A DNA stretch of 64,000 nt from Minisyncoccota bacterium (GTDB lineage: Bacteria; Patescibacteriota; Minisyncoccia; Phycocordibacterales; UBA9973), in assembly GCA_036517215.1 (NCBI GenBank), contig DATDXF010000016.1, forward strand, positions 3,175-67,174, written 5' to 3'. Position numbers and translations under genes: made by a program. Below are positions 4,619 through 34,963 of this stretch, in pieces (position 1 is the stretch's first letter; each line of letters opens with the position of its first letter). The notes beneath the pieces were generated by a model. It did no database searches. It was not told the DNA's origin and saw only the letters and a program-made list of their open reading frames with translations.

Positions 4619-4683
4619 CGTACGGGACACGTTTTTATTATGCTAAAATACCCTACAAGTATAGCATATACCTGTCCCGTTAG
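4619..4683. promoter_or_regulatory. Nested palindrome in divergent pilM/comF promoter region (CGTACGGGACACG ... TATGCTA-N16-TAGCATA ... CCTGTCCCGTTAG)
   Basis: Outer arms ACGGGACA / TGTCCCGT are reverse complements, inner TATGCTA/TAGCATA palindrome; same 9-mer arms recur in the rpmI and rpsZ leaders. Confidence 0.4.
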
Positions 4684-4739
4684 AAATACTCTATGATTAC
4701 AATAAACCACGAAATATTATCAATAAAATTTCTAATGGG

Positions 4740-5402
4740 ATGAGTTTTTTAGACACCATACTTGAGATAATTTTCCCGACAAAATGCGTATTTTGCGGCA
4801 AAAACGGGGACGACCTATGCCTTGAGTGCCTAAGCGGTGCGCCAGCGGCAGAGCGAGAAAGCGCAAAGTGGATATACCCAGTGTATGATTACCGTCATCC
4901 GGCCATTAAAAAATCACTATGGCTACTAAAGTATAAGGGCAAAAAAAGACTTGCCGGTGTTTTTGCGGAAACTCTTTATGAAAAAATTATAGAAGAGTTG
5001 TCCGAATTGTCGGTAATGGAAAATTTCAATCAGCCGATACTGGTTCCCATCCCTCTTGCCTCCGCGAGATACCGGGAAAGGGGGTTCAATCAGTCGGAAT
5101 TGATTTGCAAAGAGCTGATAAAAATAAATGGCGAGCGCCAGTCGGGCATAGAGTTAAAATTGGGGAATAATATCTTAACCAAGACTAAAGACACGGTACA
5201 CCAGGCTCGCATCAAGAACCGGATTGCCCGGCTTAAAAATATTGCCGGAAGTTTCGAGGTAAATAATCCGCTAGCGGTAAAAAGAAAAAACATAATTCTT
5301 ATAGACGATATCTTGACTACCGGAGCCACCCTCACGGAAGCGCGAAAAGTGCTGAAACGCTCCGGGGCGCGAAAAATAATAGCATTCACTTTGGCGCATT
5401 AG
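4740..5402 (+). CDS. comFC: ComF family protein (phosphoribosyltransferase-domain competence protein)
   Basis: N-terminal double CxxC zinc finger (CVFCGKNGDDLCLECL), C-terminal PRTase motif ILIDDILTTGATL. Confidence 0.8.
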   Translation: MSFLDTILEIIFPTKCVFCGKNGDDLCLECLSGAPAAERESAKWIYPVYDYRHPAIKKSLWLLKYKGKKRLAGVFAETLYEKIIEELSELSVMENFNQPILVPIPLASARYRERGFNQSELICKELIKINGERQSGIELKLGNNILTKTKDTVHQARIKNRIARLKNIAGSFEVNNPLAVKRKNIILIDDILTTGATLTEARKVLKRSGARKIIAFTLAH

Positions 5403-16277: not shown

Positions 16278-16369
16278 TGGCGGAGCCGGGCGGATTCGAA
16301 CCGCCGAGGGGTTTTAAAGCCCCTGCCTCTTTAGCAAAGAGGTACGTTAGACCACTCTGACACGGCTCC
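16278..16369 (-). tRNA. tRNA-Ser (anticodon GCU), type II, CCA encoded
   Basis: Minus-strand reading GGAGCCG...CCTCT-TTGCTAA-AGAGG...long variable arm...GGCGG-TTCGAAT-CCGCC-CGGCTCC-G-CCA; 7/7 acceptor pairs. Confidence 0.8.
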
Positions 16370-16458: not shown

Positions 16459-16544
16459 GGAGAGATGGGTGAGTGGTTTAAACCAACAGTTTACTAAACT
16501 GTCGTCCCCTAAAAGGACCGAGGGTTCGAATCCCTCTCTCACCG
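16459..16544 (+). tRNA. Type II tRNA with apparent anticodon ACU (Ser-like; G73 discriminator, 3-bp D-stem, 17-nt variable arm), CCA not encoded
   Basis: GGAGAGA-TG-GGT-GAGTGGTTTAA-ACC-A-ACAGT-TTACTAA-ACTGT-CGTCCCCTAAAAGGACC-GAGGG-TTCGAAT-CCCTC-TCTCACC-G; acceptor 6/7 (A3:A70 mismatch). Confidence 0.6.
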
Positions 16545-16589
16545 CATTGACAACTTAGTATCGGTGTGTCCTTGTTGCTTATGGCAACA

Positions 16590-29977: not shown

Positions 29978-30064
29978 TACAAAGATAAACGGAGCACAAG
30001 AGAGACTTCCAAAAACCGAGCATCTATAAGAGGTTTAGAGGGTAAATTTTCGGGTAATTTATTG

Positions 30065-30138
30065 TCCGTCCTCTTGGATTCGAACCAAGGACCCCAGAGG
30101 TATAAGCTCTGTGCTCTAACCAACTGAGCTAAGGACGG
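30065..30138 (-). tRNA. tRNA-Ile (anticodon UAU), CCA not encoded
   Basis: Minus-strand reading CCGTCCT-TA-GCTC-AGTTGGTTA-GAGC-A-CAGAG-CTTATAC-CTCTG-GGGTC-CTTGG-TTCGAAT-CCAAG-AGGACGG-A; all stems pair. Confidence 0.8.
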
Positions 30139-30193: not shown

Positions 30194-32116
30194 TTATTCC
30201 GGCTTCGGAGGAGCTATGACTTCTTTCTTCTTCAGAAGAATTCCATGCGCCACGAGTATTTTCTCGTATTCTTCCTGCTCCAGAGTTTCCACTTCTATCA
30301 GCCTGGTAGCTATGGCTGTAAATGCTTTTGTATTTTCCCTGAGGACTCTTTCCGCTGTTTTTAACCCGTCGTTTATTATTCTGGATATTTCCGCATCAAC
30401 TTTGGTGGAAACTGTTTCGGAAAATTCTTTTTCCGGCATCTCGCCGTATTGAGGCCTGCCCGGAGATTCCGCCAAAGCTATCGGGCCGATGACATCGGAC
30501 ATCCCCCATCTCGTAACCATAGCACGGGCGATGTTGGTGGCAACCGTTAGATCACTCGATGGCCCCGTGGTTATGTCTCCGAAAATCATCTGCTCCGCCA
30601 CATATCCCCCGAGCGACATGGCGATGTCGTCAATAAATTCTTTTTTGGACTGAAGGCGTCTTTCTTCGAGCGGAAGCTTGAGCGTGTATCCGCCGGCATT
30701 CCCGCGGGAGATTATGGAAACTTTATGCACCGGGTCGGCATGCGGAAGAACAGAAGCGACTATCGCGTGGCCGGCTTCGTGATAAGCGGTAATTTCTTTT
30801 TCCTTTTTGGAAAGCAAGTGACTTTTTCTTTCGGGGCCGAGCATGACTTTTTCTATGGCGCGAATGAGGTCAAACTGAAAAACTTTCTTGCGGTTCTCTC
30901 TGGCGGCCAGTATCGCGCCTTCGTTCATGAGAGAATACAAATCCGCACCGGAAAATCCCGGAGTTCGTTCCGCAATCAATTTCAAATTTATGTCTTCGGC
31001 AAGAGGTTTTTTTACCGCGTGAATTTTCAGTATTTCTTCTCGGTCAGCGCGGTCCGGCAAGTCGAGGATAACTTTTCTGTCAAAACGTCCCGGTCGGATA
31101 AGCGCAGGGTCGAGAACATCCGGCCTGTTTGTAGCCGCCATCACGATGACCTTGTCGTTCGGCTCAAAGCCGTCCATTTCCACCAATATTTGGTTCAAGG
31201 TTTGCTCGCGCTCATCGTTGCCTCCGCCGAACCCTCCTCCCCTAGTGCGCCCTATCGCGTCTATTTCATCCACGAAGATGATTGCCGGAGCTGCGCGCTT
31301 GGCCATTTTGAAAAGGTCTCGCACACGACTGGCTCCAACCCCGACGAACATTTCCACGAACTCGCTTCCCGAAAGGTGAAAAAACGGCACTCCGGCTTCG
31401 CCGGCTACCGCTCTCGCAAGCAGGGTCTTCCCCGTTCCCGGAGCGCCAGTCAATATTACTCCTTTTGGAATTCTGGCTCCTATATCCAGGAACTTCTTCG
31501 GGCTTTTAAGGAAATCCACTATTTCTTTTAGCTCTTCTTTTGCTTCCTTCGCCCCGGCCACGTCCTTGAAGGTTACTTTATTATTTTTATCGTTGGGGTC
31601 GGTAATACGCGCCTTGGACTGACCGAAGGTAAAAGCCTGCATACCGGCGCCCTTTACCTGGCGGGACAGATACCAAAAGAAAAGCAGGATAAAGATTATC
31701 GGCAAAAGAAACGGCAAGATATTCACGAGCCAAAACATAAAACCGCTTTCGTCTTTTATCTGAATTCCGGTGTTGGACAAGGCCTCGGTCGTCACGCCGT
31801 AATTAAACAGCGTTTGCGAAAGAGCTGAGCCGACTTCCTTCTTCGTTATTTTTACATCATCGTTTTGGTAGGTAATCGTCAGCTTGTCTCCTTCAACCAA
31901 AATATTTTTAACTTCGCCAGCCTGAACACTTTTCGCCAAGTCGGATATCGCGACTTCGGGCACCACCTTTGCATCTCCGGAGACCACCAGGTATAGCGCG
32001 GTAATGAGCATGAAGAAAAATATCGCTCCGGCCAAATTTGTCCCGAAGTTTGTTTTCTTGGGTGTTTTTTTACCTTTACTATTTGGTTCTTTTTGGTTTA
32101 AAAAATTAAAATCCAT
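30194..32116 (-). CDS. ftsH: ATP-dependent zinc metalloprotease FtsH
   Basis: 640 aa; two N-terminal TMs, AAA Walker [18 protein letters not shown] zinc motif. Confidence 0.9.
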
Positions 32117-32394
32117 CCCGTTAGAGATAGGAAGCGCCTAATCTGTTTTTAAGATAACGCTTGCCCATTCCCGATTTTAAGAATAATTCTCTCGACTTCG
32201 CTTTACTTTCTAATAAACACGCTTCGTAGTATATCAAAATAAATGGGCCTCGTCCGTTCGTATATGTAGATAAACCTTTGTTGTGCTGATTCAGGCGCTT
32301 CCGTAGGTCTTGCGTATATCCAGTGTAAATTTTGCCGTCTTTCTTACTTTTTAAGATATATGTGTAATAAAACATAGGTAATCTCTAACGGGAT
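32115..32394. repeat. Perfect 14-bp inverted repeats ATCCCGTTAGAGAT (32115-32128) / ATCTCTAACGGGAT (32381-32394) bracketing the GIY-YIG ORF
   Basis: Seen directly; left arm contains the GIY-YIG stop codon and overlaps the ftsH ATG by 2 nt; right arm starts 5 nt after the GIY-YIG ATG. Confidence 0.6.
32121..32375 (-). CDS. GIY-YIG nuclease-family small protein (UPF0213/YhbQ-like)
   Basis: 84 aa; MFYYTYILKSKKDGKIYTGYT...RLNQHN GIY-YIG core. Confidence 0.7.
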   Translation of the reverse strand: MFYYTYILKSKKDGKIYTGYTQDLRKRLNQHNKGLSTYTNGRGPFILIYYEACLLESKAKSRELFLKSGMGKRYLKNRLGASYL

Positions 32395-32529
32395 CCATAT
32401 TAAAGAGATTAGCACAAAATACTTACAAAGAAAAGTTACCGTTATGCGATTCTGCAAGTATAATGACGCTTTCCGTAATATAAAATTACCGCGCAGAAAA
32501 GTGGAACTTTACCAACAAAAAGATTTACT

Positions 32530-34008
32530 TTACTCTTCTTCTGTTACCGCAGAAGTCTTTGGAAATGCAGCCCCTTGTGACATTGTTAAGTATGGTCTAA
32601 ATATAAAGGGTACCCAATAGGACATTTGAGCTCCTTTTCTTTCTTGTAAAAACCCTATATCAATTAGCTGTCTAACTATATTTATAAAATCATTTAATTC
32701 ATTTCTTTTAAAAAGAGCTTTGATTGACTCGGATGTCTGTTCTGTTTTTTCTCCTCTGAAAACTTCAATATATTTTCTTAATGAAGGATACTCTGACCAC
32801 AAGGTTTCTACGCGTGCTTTTGAAACCTCATCTAATGCTAAGGTCAAAGCGTTTGCACTTATTAAGTGCCCAGATGGGTTGCTCCCCGTTCCACCAATTT
32901 CCCCCAATCTAACTTGTTGCTCTCGGGCAAATTTTATGAGATTTATTACCTCTCTAGGCGCAGGATTTTGTTTTCCATCCTGGGCACGTCTTAATATCCA
33001 ATCAAAAGTTTTTGATTTTTTTGGTCCAGGTTCAACTTGGTCAGGGAAAATTGTATAAAAAGCCCCATCTTGTATCTTCGGATTACCTAATGTATCACGA
33101 CTAAGTTTTGTATATTCCTCTACCGCTCGATTGTTAAAAAAACGACTTAAAATTAAATGCCTTAGGGAATCGGGTGTCCACTTAATGTGATAAAAACGAG
33201 TAATATGACTTTGTTCTCTAAACCCTTGCTCGTGAGTTATTCTTTCCCAAATATCATCTCTTAAAAATATTTTAAGCTTAATATTATTAAAAGAAGCAAA
33301 ATCTAAATATACTCTAAACAAAGACCTTAGAGCAGGTATTTCTACTGATGGTTTAGTAAAAGCAACATCTAATCTATCAAACATAATCCACAACTCAATC
33401 CCAGATTTTTCTAGAATTTCGTCAATTTCTTTTAAAAGACTACGAACTGACACTTTTCCAGCCTTTTCTTCTTCTTGGGTGGGTTCACCAAGAACCACCG
33501 AATAAGTTGACCCATCTGGCAATCCTACTGTAGGCTGTAATCTTGAAATATATTCTAGAGCACCTCTAAAAATTTTTTGTAGACCTTCAAGTGGAATAAG
33601 CCCTTCTTCTTTAAGACGTTCCAAAATTGGCTTGAATTTATCTTTGTTCTTTTCATCTCTGTTTATAGAGTTTCCAATTAACGATAAGATATAAATCTTC
33701 CAAAGACTTCTAAACTCGTCTTCACTCAATCCTTTCTCGTTTACAGACTGAAATACAGGATCGCCTGAAATTTCTTCACCTGGAATTAAATAGATATTTC
33801 TTTTAAATAAATTTGGTGCATTTTTTTGGAGAAGAAGGTAAAGAGCGCTTTTTCCTGTTCCTTTTCCGCCATAAATTATATCAAAACGACCCTGGTTTAA
33901 CATTTCCCAAGCTTCTGTTTTAATAAAGTAATTTTCAAGCTCTTTTTGTTCTCTTTCTGCAACACTTTCGCCTAAATCTATTCTTTTTAGTATCTCTAAA
34001 TTATTCAT
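32530..34008 (-). CDS. P-loop NTPase (AAA-like ATPase with long Walker A to Walker B spacing)
   Basis: 492 aa; Walker A IIYGGKGTGKSALYLL near N-terminus, Walker B-like LWIMFDRLD ~160 aa later; ~280 aa C-terminal domain of unknown function. Confidence 0.55.
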   Translation of the reverse strand: MNNLEILKRIDLGESVAEREQKELENYFIKTEAWEMLNQGRFDIIYGGKGTGKSALYLLLQKNAPNLFKRNIYLIPGEEISGDPVFQSVNEKGLSEDEFRSLWKIYILSLIGNSINRDEKNKDKFKPILERLKEEGLIPLEGLQKIFRGALEYISRLQPTVGLPDGSTYSVVLGEPTQEEEKAGKVSVRSLLKEIDEILEKSGIELWIMFDRLDVAFTKPSVEIPALRSLFRVYLDFASFNNIKLKIFLRDDIWERITHEQGFREQSHITRFYHIKWTPDSLRHLILSRFFNNRAVEEYTKLSRDTLGNPKIQDGAFYTIFPDQVEPGPKKSKTFDWILRRAQDGKQNPAPREVINLIKFAREQQVRLGEIGGTGSNPSGHLISANALTLALDEVSKARVETLWSEYPSLRKYIEVFRGEKTEQTSESIKALFKRNELNDFINIVRQLIDIGFLQERKGAQMSYWVPFIFRPYLTMSQGAAFPKTSAVTEEE

Positions 34009-34134: not shown

Positions 34135-34419
34135 TTACTCGCCGTCAGTTCTGGAAAGCTTTGTTGGTATGCCCTTTCTGTATAAATCTACCAGTTTTTC
34201 TTTTTTATCCCTGCGCCATTTTTTAATTTGAATTTCCCTTGAACGAGCTTCTTTTAGAGAATTTTGATTTTCGAGAAAAACTATTTCAAACTTGTCACGA
34301 TTCTTAGTGAAACCTGCGCCCTGATTAGTATTATGTTCTTTTAATCTTCTTTGTGGGTTATCTGTAACACCTATGTATAAATTCCCATATGAATTTTTTA
34401 TCATATATACGAAATACAT
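34135..34419 (-). CDS. GIY-YIG nuclease-family small protein (UPF0213/YhbQ-like), second copy
   Basis: 94 aa; MYFVYMIKNSYGNLYIGVTDNPQRRLKEHN. Confidence 0.7.
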   Translation of the reverse strand: MYFVYMIKNSYGNLYIGVTDNPQRRLKEHNTNQGAGFTKNRDKFEIVFLENQNSLKEARSREIQIKKWRRDKKEKLVDLYRKGIPTKLSRTDGE

Positions 34420-34565
34420 AATTTAATTATATGCCCGTTCGACATGCCCTTCAACTTCGTTCAGGGCAAGCTCAGGGCACTCGCCTCAAAATACCCTTAG
34501 AGTTCCTTGGGTGTTTTTGCTGTGGCTTGCCACGAGCGAATTTTGTCACTACAAAATGAGTCGAG

Positions 34566-34963
34566 TGGAGATGACGGGAATCGAACCCGTGTGCAAAAGG
34601 TTTTTGCAAAGAAGTCTACATGCTTAGCGAGCTTTTTTGTTTAGATTAAAAAATTCTTAAGCGGGCCAAATATTTTTTAACCGAGTTCTAAGTTTTCGAA
34701 AAATGTTCGAACGGGCATTTCCTTATCCCGATAATATTACACCTCTACTCATATATCGGAAGTCTATGAGAGAGACGCCGGCACTCGCTTACGCGAAAGC
34801 TGGAACGAAAGCAAAGTCCTTCATACCGAAGTAATCAGAAACAATTGCTTTAGTTTTGGTAGTCAATTTTGCAATTAACATTTGAACGAATTTTCACGAG
34901 ATTACGTTCATGCTCGACATGCATCAATAGCAAAGCGACCTTCTGTCTATGCCTTGCATCCCC
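34566..34963 (-). ncRNA. ssrA: tmRNA (transfer-messenger RNA)
   Basis: 5' GGGGAUG pairs 7/7 with 3' CAUCUCC-A including G3:U70 alanine identity pair; T-arm ACGGG-UUCGAUU-CCCGU; in-frame GCA resume codon at nt 92 then 27 sense codons ending GCU-UUC-GCG-UAA (..PAFA); smpB immediately upstream on same strand. Confidence 0.8.

Follow-up and report, generated by a model that had tools for sequence, protein, structure and literature searches.

The smallest autonomous insertion sequence (IS) of bacteria known to us is IS200, at about 700 bp, and the element that we describe here, at 278 bp, is far smaller. The REP/RAYT and IS200/IS605 systems use HUH Y1 transposases and make no target duplication, IS200/IS605 elements are without terminal inverted repeats, and RAYT genes are usually single-copy; introners, the transposons that create introns in eukaryotes, use their target duplication as a splice site and for the most part encode no protein. 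Nucleases of the GIY-YIG superfamily share a domain of about 100 amino acids (aa) with N-terminal GIY and YIG motifs, followed by a central Arg and a C-terminal Glu (PMC1564403). A minimal stand-alone domain of this kind is a trait of the UPF0213 type (PMC1564403; PMC7017083), and a 2006 survey treated the Slx1 lineage as vertically inherited repair proteins and traced the selfish members of the superfamily to the UvrC lineage (PMC1564403). The locus considered here lies in a stretch of 64,000 nucleotides (nt) from a Minisyncoccota bacterium (Patescibacteriota; assembly GCA_036517215.1, contig DATDXF010000016.1, positions 3,175 to 67,174), hereafter the window, in which a 278-bp unit with a single gene, for an 84-aa GIY-YIG nuclease, sits on the start codon of ftsH. 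We think it likely that this unit belongs to a widespread family of miniature mobile elements, present in the Patescibacteria, or candidate phyla radiation (CPR), that carry the nuclease alone. That a mobile element with terminal inverted repeats and a target duplication has inserted at the start of ftsH is well supported.

The insertion at the start of ftsH

The initial annotation had described a unit of about 280 bp in which perfect 14-bp inverted repeats surround an 84-aa GIY-YIG open reading frame (ORF), one repeat holding the nuclease stop codon and overlapping the ftsH ATG, the other adjoining the GIY-YIG ATG at 5 nt. This layout is confirmed, as are the repeat sequences themselves, except that the true terminal repeat is 13 bp long and the 14th pair belongs to a TGGA target duplication. 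Its placement of the unit ‘flush against’ the ftsH start was likewise correct as to position but understated, as the insertion lies inside the first two codons and has duplicated the start codon. The parts of the locus are as follows.

32116–32393, minus strand: the whole element, 278 bp including both terminal repeats, delimited by a clean insertion relative to empty ftsH sites and by the same boundaries in 74 copies.
32381–32393, minus strand: 5′ terminal inverted repeat, TCCCGTTAGAGAT on the sense strand, ending 5 nt before the GIY-YIG ATG.
32116–32128, minus strand: 3′ terminal inverted repeat, ATCTCTAACGGGA, containing the GIY-YIG stop; the ftsH ATG takes its A from the last base, 32116.
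32121–32375, minus strand: ORF for the 84-aa stand-alone GIY-YIG nuclease, assigned to the Slx1/UPF0213 type from its Pfam match, PDB sequence matches and AlphaFold model.
32394–32397, minus strand: upstream copy of the target-site duplication, TGGA, recognized from empty sites with a single ATGGAT and from duplication statistics.
32112–32115, minus strand: downstream copy of the duplication, TGGA, bases 2–5 of the present ftsH ORF.
30194–32116, minus strand: host gene ftsH, 640 aa (Pfam AAA and Peptidase_M41), whose start codon is the target.
32406–32414, minus strand: host promoter, with an extended −10 element (TG-n-TAATCT) that precedes the upstream ATG by 7 nt, its pattern conserved in empty ftsH sites.

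On the sense strand the 5′ part of the locus reads promoter …TGTGCTAATCTCTTTAAT-A-TGGA / TCCCGTTAGAGAT-TACCT-ATG(GIY-YIG), and the 3′ part …TCC-TAT-CTC-TAA-CGGGA / TGGA-TTTTAAT…(ftsH). The GIY-YIG TAA stop (32123–32121) is inside the 3′ repeat, and the present ftsH ATG occupies 32116–32114, its AT being common to the start codon and the 14-mer. The upstream TGGA together with position 32398 contains the original ftsH ATG (32398–32396), now at the 5′ end of the element.

The 14-bp pair comes from an exact pattern search of the window (ATCCCGTTAGAGAT at 32115–32128 on the plus strand, its exact reverse complement at 32381–32394) and is absent from the 25 repeats listed by a general repeat scan of 31500–33000. 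With up to two mismatches the 14-mer has four matches in the window against 0.43 expected, a number reached by none of 100 shuffles, and the two further matches form a second inverted pair at 4674–4741, 40 nt apart. A single perfect 14-bp pair less than 300 bp apart is expected about 0.07 times per 64 kb by our own arithmetic, which makes chance only moderately unlikely, and the decisive evidence is therefore recurrence elsewhere rather than repeat length. Across 76 distinct copies complementarity spans exactly 13 bp (positions 1–13 at least 92% Watson-Crick, the first inner position at most 30%), and the outermost A-T pair falls outside the repeat because it is made by the last A and the first T of the flanking TGGA copies. 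A family profile searched with nhmmer matches 32112–32397 at E = 4.9e-85, and the element is 275–287 bp long, with a mode of 278, in the 74 full copies.

Comparison with the ftsH upstream regions of relatives, a check that the initial annotation had proposed, gives the insertion its clearest form. With the N-terminal 160 residues of FtsH, which are variable, as query, a scan of metagenome contigs yielded 80 loci of 62–84% identity (loci outside the window are designated by L numbers), and in 74 of these the element is absent and a single ATGGAT stands directly behind the conserved promoter (CTCTTTAATATGGATTTTAATTTT). Aligned with four such empty sites, the window retains homology on both flanks of a clean gap of about 282 nt, the length being that of the element plus one copy of the duplication; insertion was between +5 and +6 (the A of the ftsH ATG being +1), with a 4-bp TGGA duplication. 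Further full copies at ftsH are those of L127, L128 and L132, which come from one population and are identical to L008, and that of L013; L165 has a short copy at the ftsH start. Since each filled lineage (the window, L008/L127, L013 and the short copy of L165) has empty nearest relatives, at least three to four independent insertions must have occurred at this start codon. Seven contigs with an identical GIY-YIG or FtsH protein belong to the same population, share the identical arrangement and give no empty-site information.

An ancestral GIY-YIG–ftsH operon, with the inverted repeat as an operator, attenuator or terminator, would account for the identical arrangement in those seven contigs and for the weak terminator-like hairpin that a simple scan calls at 32130–32113. 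We give this reading next to no credence, as it is already refuted by the empty sites: 74 of the 80 related ftsH genes have neither such a gene nor the repeat upstream, the unit recurs before 45 other gene families, and target duplications are present. The contrary pattern named in the initial annotation, a repeat confined to this locus with relatives sharing an identical conserved arrangement, is thus not what the relatives show.

Some ftsH loci without the element carry short sequences equal to the last 8–9 nt of the 3′ terminal repeat. In L104, L135, L138 and L154 the spacer before the ATG ends in CTAACGGG (…CTAACGGG/ATGGAT), and in L096, L129, L150 and L139 the spacer between promoter and ATG carries CTAACGAA. 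L138 (with CTAACGGG) and L143 (without it) match perfectly from the ftsH ATG onward but show no relationship before it, with the homology breakpoint exactly at the junction. This breakpoint could be the scar of a lost element or the product of nuclease-stimulated recombination at the site.

Copies, hosts and target sites

The element belongs to a large family. About 990 protein homologs are present in a collection of 5.8 billion proteins, of which the 120 listed are 81–100% identical to the window protein; among the matches listed, the sources are Nomurabacteria, Paceibacterota, Woesebacteria and other CPR bins. Many homologs lie on contigs of only 0.5–2 kb, a typical sign of a repeat at which assemblies break. 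When one genome per species was scanned, at least 438 loci proved to encode the protein; 80 of these were fetched, and several genomes contain two or three copies. Nearly all copies are bracketed by the same 13-bp repeats, even where protein identity is only about 60–70%. A search for other repeat pairs, as the initial annotation had suggested, thus recovered homologous ORFs bracketed in 74 copies and before at least 45 unrelated host families, as well as copies that contain no ORF. In these 74 full copies the last base of the 3′ repeat and the two bases after it form an ATG in 59 and a GTG in four. A host ORF of at least 60 codons begins exactly at the junction in 57, always in the direction of the nuclease gene (57/57), and these host ORFs fall into 45 families. 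They are mostly essential genes, those confirmed by Pfam being LeuRS, AlaRS, TrmD, RuvC, MurI (glutamate racemase), RRF, L9, SecY, PyrG (CTP synthase) and FtsH.

Target duplications recur in the family. Taking one representative per host family as an independent site (n = 60), 31 sites carry exactly duplicated stretches of 4 nt or longer, a number that none of 5000 shuffles attains and that compares with 8.7 expected by shuffled pairing. The downstream target logo reads T (0.96), G (0.86), A/G, A (0.81), with a weaker A-T-G-R-A upstream, and the duplications are mainly TGAA, TGGA, TGCA and TGAG, but also CTAA (L012), TTAA (L072) and TTATGA (L069). In L068 the terminal pair is C-G in place of T-A, and the host start has become GTG while the upstream copy stays ATG, from which it follows that the host start codon takes its first base from the repeat and not from the target.

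We had also considered the upstream ATGNN as part of the element, and rejected this because it covaries with the first codons of the host gene and does so better than shuffled pairing; examples are TGGA with TGGA, TGCA with TGCA, ATGCAA in L017, TTATGA in L069 and 12 nt in L023. The junction in L023 (1474–1790) is atypical, with a 12-nt duplication of the host start (ATGGACAAAAAG) and 6 extra nt (TATTGG) before the left repeat.

Such targets bear on homing, in which a free-standing endonuclease gene would cut empty alleles and be copied by recombinational repair, with the repeats and an internal helix (helix 2, see below) acting as RNA structures, such as RNase III processing sites or translational controls. 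The same sites, at ftsH and at a PrgI-like gene, have been occupied repeatedly across lineages, the L138/L143 recombination breakpoint falls exactly at the junction, stems are predicted in the transcript, and the protein has weak PHROGs and NCBIfam matches to homing or intron endonucleases; CPR genomes, too, retain RNase III (PMC12641178). However, homing leaves no target duplication and needs flank homology, whereas here duplications are significant, 45 or more unrelated host genes are occupied, and only four to five target bases (TGNA and the preceding A) are conserved in place of a long specific target. Homing would also have to explain ORF-less copies with the same ends and sites, and a nuclease that has no DNA-binding domain past its catalytic core and a fold nearer to Slx1 than to I-TevI. 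We consider it distinctly unlikely.

In support of mobility, the copies differ in position among related genomes. For example, in one conserved gene cluster the element precedes the PrgI-like gene in some genomes and the next-but-one gene in others, the alternative site being empty; a protein 98% identical to that of the window copy is encoded before the PrgI-like gene in GCA_028718635.1, not before ftsH; and the nearest relatives of the window copy (93%) are located at other genes. Elements at the same host gene are 0.81–0.96 identical between genomes, compared with 0.67–0.84 for the host genes. A recent burst that left near-identical copies within a genome was rejected, as such copies are 85–92% identical.

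The ORF-less copies are 66–122 bp long, have the same ends, occur in many loci and sit directly on a host ATG, often with TGAA or TGGA duplications (as in L072, L076 and L165). They keep the local layout of hairpin, single T and repeat, for example GGAAATC-TAAA-GATTTCC-T-ATTTCTAACGGGA. One of them lies in the window:

4675–4740, plus strand: ORF-less short copy, 66 bp, with repeats TCCCGTTAGAAAT / ATTTCTAATGGGA, related to the terminal repeats with 1–2 mismatches.

This copy supplies, with its last base, the A of the ATG that starts a ComF-like phosphoribosyltransferase gene (4740–5402); its flanks are decayed, and it has no intact target duplication.

Tandem end-TGAA-end junctions occur in L036, L058 and L059. 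Specifically, L036 (5248–5290) has a full element, then TGAA, then a second left end, while in L058 (5249–5385) and L059 (271–395) a full element and TGAA are followed by a complete 120-bp short copy. These tandem forms fit either repeated insertion into a regenerated target or a junction form. The same arrangement is found in two contigs binned as a Woesearchaeota archaeon and as ‘Saccharibacteria’ (L058 and L059), and other copies come from bins labelled Clostridia, Desulfobacteraceae, Omnitrophica and Scalinduaceae (L069, L074, L079 and L085). The non-CPR labels mean either mis-binned CPR contigs or transfer beyond the CPR. No relative was found among viral contigs.

The targeted genes seem to be leaderless. 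In 56 distinct empty ftsH upstream regions, TG at −15/−14 and TAnnnT at −12 to −7 are 93–98% conserved, and TTnAC is found at −35 to −31, numbered from the A of the ATG. As this numbering matches canonical promoter numbering, a leaderless mRNA is implied. The same promoter pattern is seen at many other filled sites, such as TGGTATAAT-GAAAGA-ATG in L010. Among the long ORFs of the window and of L008–L053, Shine-Dalgarno-like motifs precede only about 4%, and a −10-like hexamer lies 5–7 nt before the ATG in 20–27%, with a peak at 6 nt. The source organisms seem, from these patterns, to rely largely on leaderless initiation independent of Shine-Dalgarno motifs, and the element would then lie at about +5/+6 of the transcript, with the duplicated ATG at or next to the transcript 5′ end.

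Two subfamilies, set apart by a 1-nt indel near the 3′ end, join the host start in different ways. In subfamily 1, which includes the window copy, the reading frame closes within the repeat (…RLGASYL-TAA), leaving 4 nt to the host ATG, whereas in subfamily 2 it crosses the repeat in another frame (…RLKRFLSLTG) and its TGA stop, supplied by the duplication, overlaps the host ATG (ATGA). A stop codon is supplied at 24 of 29 junctions of subfamily 2, compared with 15 of 43 in subfamily 1, where the duplications vary more. At the other end, eight copies have the duplicated upstream ATG in the reading frame of the nuclease, whose N-terminus then reads MNPVRD…, in agreement with the annotation of some homologs at 92 aa; an internal ATG is missing from L066 and L073, which use the duplicated host ATG. 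The 3′ end was also inspected for an outward −10 that might serve the host gene, and neither TATCTC nor ATCTCT has a TG or a TAnnnT at the right spacing, which lends such a promoter no support.

It is plausible, by sequence logic, that the host promoter transcribes the element first, the targets being leaderless, and that the nuclease ORF is started by the duplicated ATG or by the element’s own ATG 23 nt further. The host ATG would be rebuilt from the last repeat base and the duplicated TG, and ribosomes terminating on the nuclease ORF may reinitiate at this rebuilt ATG. Under such termination-reinitiation coupling, nonsense or frameshift mutations in the element would also lower expression of an essential gene, and the element would therefore be hard to lose or inactivate.

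The nuclease, the folded ends and a proposed mechanism

Membership of the encoded protein in the GIY-YIG superfamily is clear from Pfam (PF01541, E = 2.3e-17), and residues Y4, Y6, Y17, G19, R25, R27, H31, E51 and E63 are invariant among 43 homologs. The AlphaFold model has a beta-beta-alpha-beta-alpha-alpha fold at a high predicted confidence (pLDDT 92.8), and at 84 aa in all there is no auxiliary or DNA-binding domain beyond the catalytic core. In the PDB, phmmer finds only UPF0213 proteins (1ZG2, 2.6e-09; 1YWL, 1.2e-05), and Foldseek ranks 1ZG2 first and then ten chains of Slx1 solved with branched DNA, at template modelling (TM) scores of 0.64–0.69, compared with 0.44–0.56 for I-TevI. By its predicted structure the protein is thus Slx1/UPF0213-like, closer in fold to Slx1 than to I-TevI. 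The ratio of nonsynonymous to synonymous substitution rates (dN/dS) is about 0.10, with dS about 0.8, across 30 distinct ORFs, indicating purifying selection. PADLOC found no defence-system match for either of the two GIY-YIG proteins of the window. This ORF is the only one in the element, which encodes no DDE, HUH, serine or tyrosine transposase.

The ends of the element are kept complementary, as is an internal helix next to the 3′ end, by compensatory substitutions. Helix 1, formed by the terminal repeats, is 99% paired among 72 distinct copies, with compensatory changes at four positions. Helix 2 pairs the RKR(L/F) codons with the 10 nt just inside the 3′ repeat and is separated from helix 1 by a single unpaired T:

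32293–32302, minus strand: helix 2, 5′ arm, GGAAGCGCCT, in the RKRL codons, identified by covariation.
32130–32139, minus strand: helix 2, 3′ arm, AGGCGCTTCC, identified by covariation, with one unpaired T (32129) between the arm and the 3′ terminal repeat.

Over the two helices together, standard pairs fill 94.9% of cells in the 72 copies, against 29–48% when the 3′ partners are slid by 1–3 columns, and 11 pairs have changed on both sides (for example GC 53 / AU 16 and CG 47 / UA 24), seven of them in helix 2. The covariation in helix 2 is not reached by any of 500 shuffles, and the changes are synonymous. The same two helices emerge from RNAalifold without guidance, and both are present in single-sequence folds as RNA and as DNA of either strand. 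At the Rfam gathering threshold there is no match at 32100–32400 or 4670–4745, the only matches in the window being a transfer-messenger RNA (tmRNA) and two tRNAs.

A single promoterless ORF with folded repeats (GTTAGAG / CTCTAAC) and one extrahelical base between helices could also be an integron-like cassette, moved by a site-specific recombinase at a folded attC-like site, and repeats with one extrahelical base do loosely recall attC sites. Here, however, the repeats bracket the ORF and do not stand together at its 3′ end, the insertions are single and scattered at gene starts and do not form arrays, no integrase is found among the listed neighbours, and site-specific recombination does not create 4-bp duplications. 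We regard such a cassette as very improbable. The suggestion in the initial annotation of a minimal mobile unit carrying only a GIY-YIG nuclease is supported in substance, but the unit is transposon-like and neither a classical homing gene nor an integron cassette.

If the element is a transposon, what moves it? We propose, as the weakest step of our reading, that the nuclease is the element’s own mobility enzyme. One strand would fold so that the 13-bp end stem stacks on helix 2 with one bulged T, and the two junctions of element and flank would thereby meet in a branched structure of the kind that a structure-selective, Slx1-like nuclease could cut; cleavage of TGNA targets would be staggered by 4 nt, and ligation or repair by the host would complete the move. 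That the nuclease drives mobility is something we infer from the co-evolution of ORF and ends, the Slx1-like fold, the covarying helices and the lack of any other gene in the element, and the conserved folded ends in particular suggest branched DNA as a candidate substrate.

The nuclease might instead be a passenger, as cargo or as a stabilizing or addiction module, on non-autonomous ends resembling those of miniature inverted-repeat transposable elements (MITEs) and moved by an unlinked transposase, for instance an IS5/PIF-like enzyme with 3–4-bp duplications. GIY-YIG enzymes are hydrolytic nucleases, and we know of no strand-transfer activity among them; 3–5-bp duplications such as CTAA and TTAA, both of which occur in the family, recall IS5-type targets; and ORF-less copies share ends and sites with the full elements. 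Strand transfer by GIY-YIG enzymes is likewise not described in the survey of the superfamily (PMC1564403). Yet the ORF and the ends travel together, with the protein diverging to about 60% identity while the repeats are nearly invariant, the coding sequence runs into the 3′ repeat and contains helix 2, and a dN/dS of 0.10 is hard to reconcile with cargo. There is no transposase domain among the Pfam-annotated neighbours in the four contexts listed, the 160 fetched loci not having been screened systematically. On balance we find a passenger nuclease rather unlikely.

Several observations weigh against a mobile family driven by its own nuclease. Copies within a genome are merely 85–92% identical and their density is low, with no copies besides those at ftsH in 388 kb of related sequence, so that movement must be rare or old; this stands beside the strong constraint on the ORFs. 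About one-third of the copies have no recognizable duplication or upstream ATG, and the preference for start codons could be in part a survivorship effect, insertions elsewhere being lethal or silent. Leaderless transcription is deduced from promoter geometry, and pairing in the helices is almost strictly Watson-Crick (15 G-U against 9 A-C cells), so that the helices may act in RNA or in DNA. We know of no GIY-YIG protein that carries out transposition, and the mobility mechanism outlined above is a putative one.

With these points in mind, we put forward tentatively a bolder form of the nuclease-driven reading, a little less likely than not: the family may represent a new autonomous class of prokaryotic transposon that has no enzyme but a minimal GIY-YIG nuclease, Slx1-like and directed at the folded ends of the element. 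It would be the smallest autonomous mobile element known and would target the first bases of leaderless transcripts, with one copy of the duplicated start codon serving the element and the other the host gene. The target might possibly be the single-stranded DNA of the initiating transcription bubble, and the host gene would depend on translation of the element.

Some other features of the window may be noted. The tmRNA gene is followed directly by a second small GIY-YIG gene (34135–34419, minus strand, 94 aa), which also matches T5orf172 weakly. Inverted repeats like those of the element do not flank it, and its nucleotide sequence resembles the family only weakly (nhmmer E = 5e-4). A 492-aa P-loop ATPase of the Sll1717 family (32530–34008, minus strand; NCBIfam 4e-62; PADLOC candidate PDC-M28C, 5e-20) separates the two GIY-YIG genes and is located downstream of smpB and tmRNA; perhaps a small defence system or island has inserted at the tmRNA locus. 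The tmRNA (34565–34963, minus strand) has an ARAGORN tag peptide, ARSNIFRKLRTRLKNIWPA, that is unusually basic for a degradation tag, and the call may be off. Immediately downstream of ftsH is a tRNA-Ile with anticodon TAT (30064–30138, minus strand), an uncommon bacterial way of reading AUA. ARAGORN also calls a divergent tRNA-Ser pair (16278–16369, minus strand; 16459–16545, plus strand), one with the unusual anticodon ACT, of which only the plus-strand member is listed at the Rfam gathering threshold.

Comparison with known systems

A full-text literature search found no published account of such a GIY-YIG element, and the family is apparently undescribed. If the nuclease does move the element, DNA transposition would have a possible fifth class of enzyme, GIY-YIG/Slx1, besides the DDE, HUH, serine and tyrosine classes, and the lower size limit for autonomous mobile elements would have to be reset. 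Start-codon duplication with coupled translation would be a third harmless route into essential genes, besides introns and inteins, and would tie expression of the host gene to the ORF of a parasite. On a more practical level, these elements explain many ‘GIY-YIG nuclease family protein’ annotations in the CPR, and some CPR assembly breaks are probably due to them, many homologs being on very short contigs; they would also mark leaderless promoters and could offer a compact, sequence-defined insertion system for bacteria without genetic tools.

Bacterial IS and their MITE derivatives, such as the Correia elements of Neisseria, resemble the family in many respects: terminal inverted repeats, a short target duplication, copies at multiple loci, presence/absence polymorphism, short non-coding derivatives with the same ends, and co-transcription with neighbouring genes. 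Unlike these, the element has an 84-aa GIY-YIG nuclease as its sole protein, perfect covarying repeats, and insertion at a start codon that duplicates the start codon. The REP/RAYT (REPIN) and IS200/IS605 systems are similar in having a tiny nuclease gene, short palindromic or hairpin repeats and dispersed short hairpin derivatives, and they require folded DNA ends, a need that covariation would suggest for our element as well.

Free-standing GIY-YIG homing genes (T4 Seg and the I-TevI family) are likewise selfish nuclease genes beside essential genes, with sites that are repeatedly occupied, whereas the element has no DNA-binding domain, a predicted Slx1-like fold, terminal repeats, target duplications and many unrelated targets. 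Introners offer an analogy only, in that the target duplication supplies the signal that keeps the host gene working (a start codon here, a splice site there), and they belong to another domain of life and use another signal.

In sequence and predicted fold the closest relatives of the element’s protein are the Slx1/UPF0213 nucleases (YhbQ, YazA), but the element proteins are multi-copy, flanked by repeats and located at variable loci, and such mobile Slx1-like members contrast with the published view of this lineage as vertically inherited (PMC1564403). What sets the family apart is the combination of transposon-like ends with a nuclease superfamily of the homing type, and there is a substantial chance that it represents a new class of transposon.

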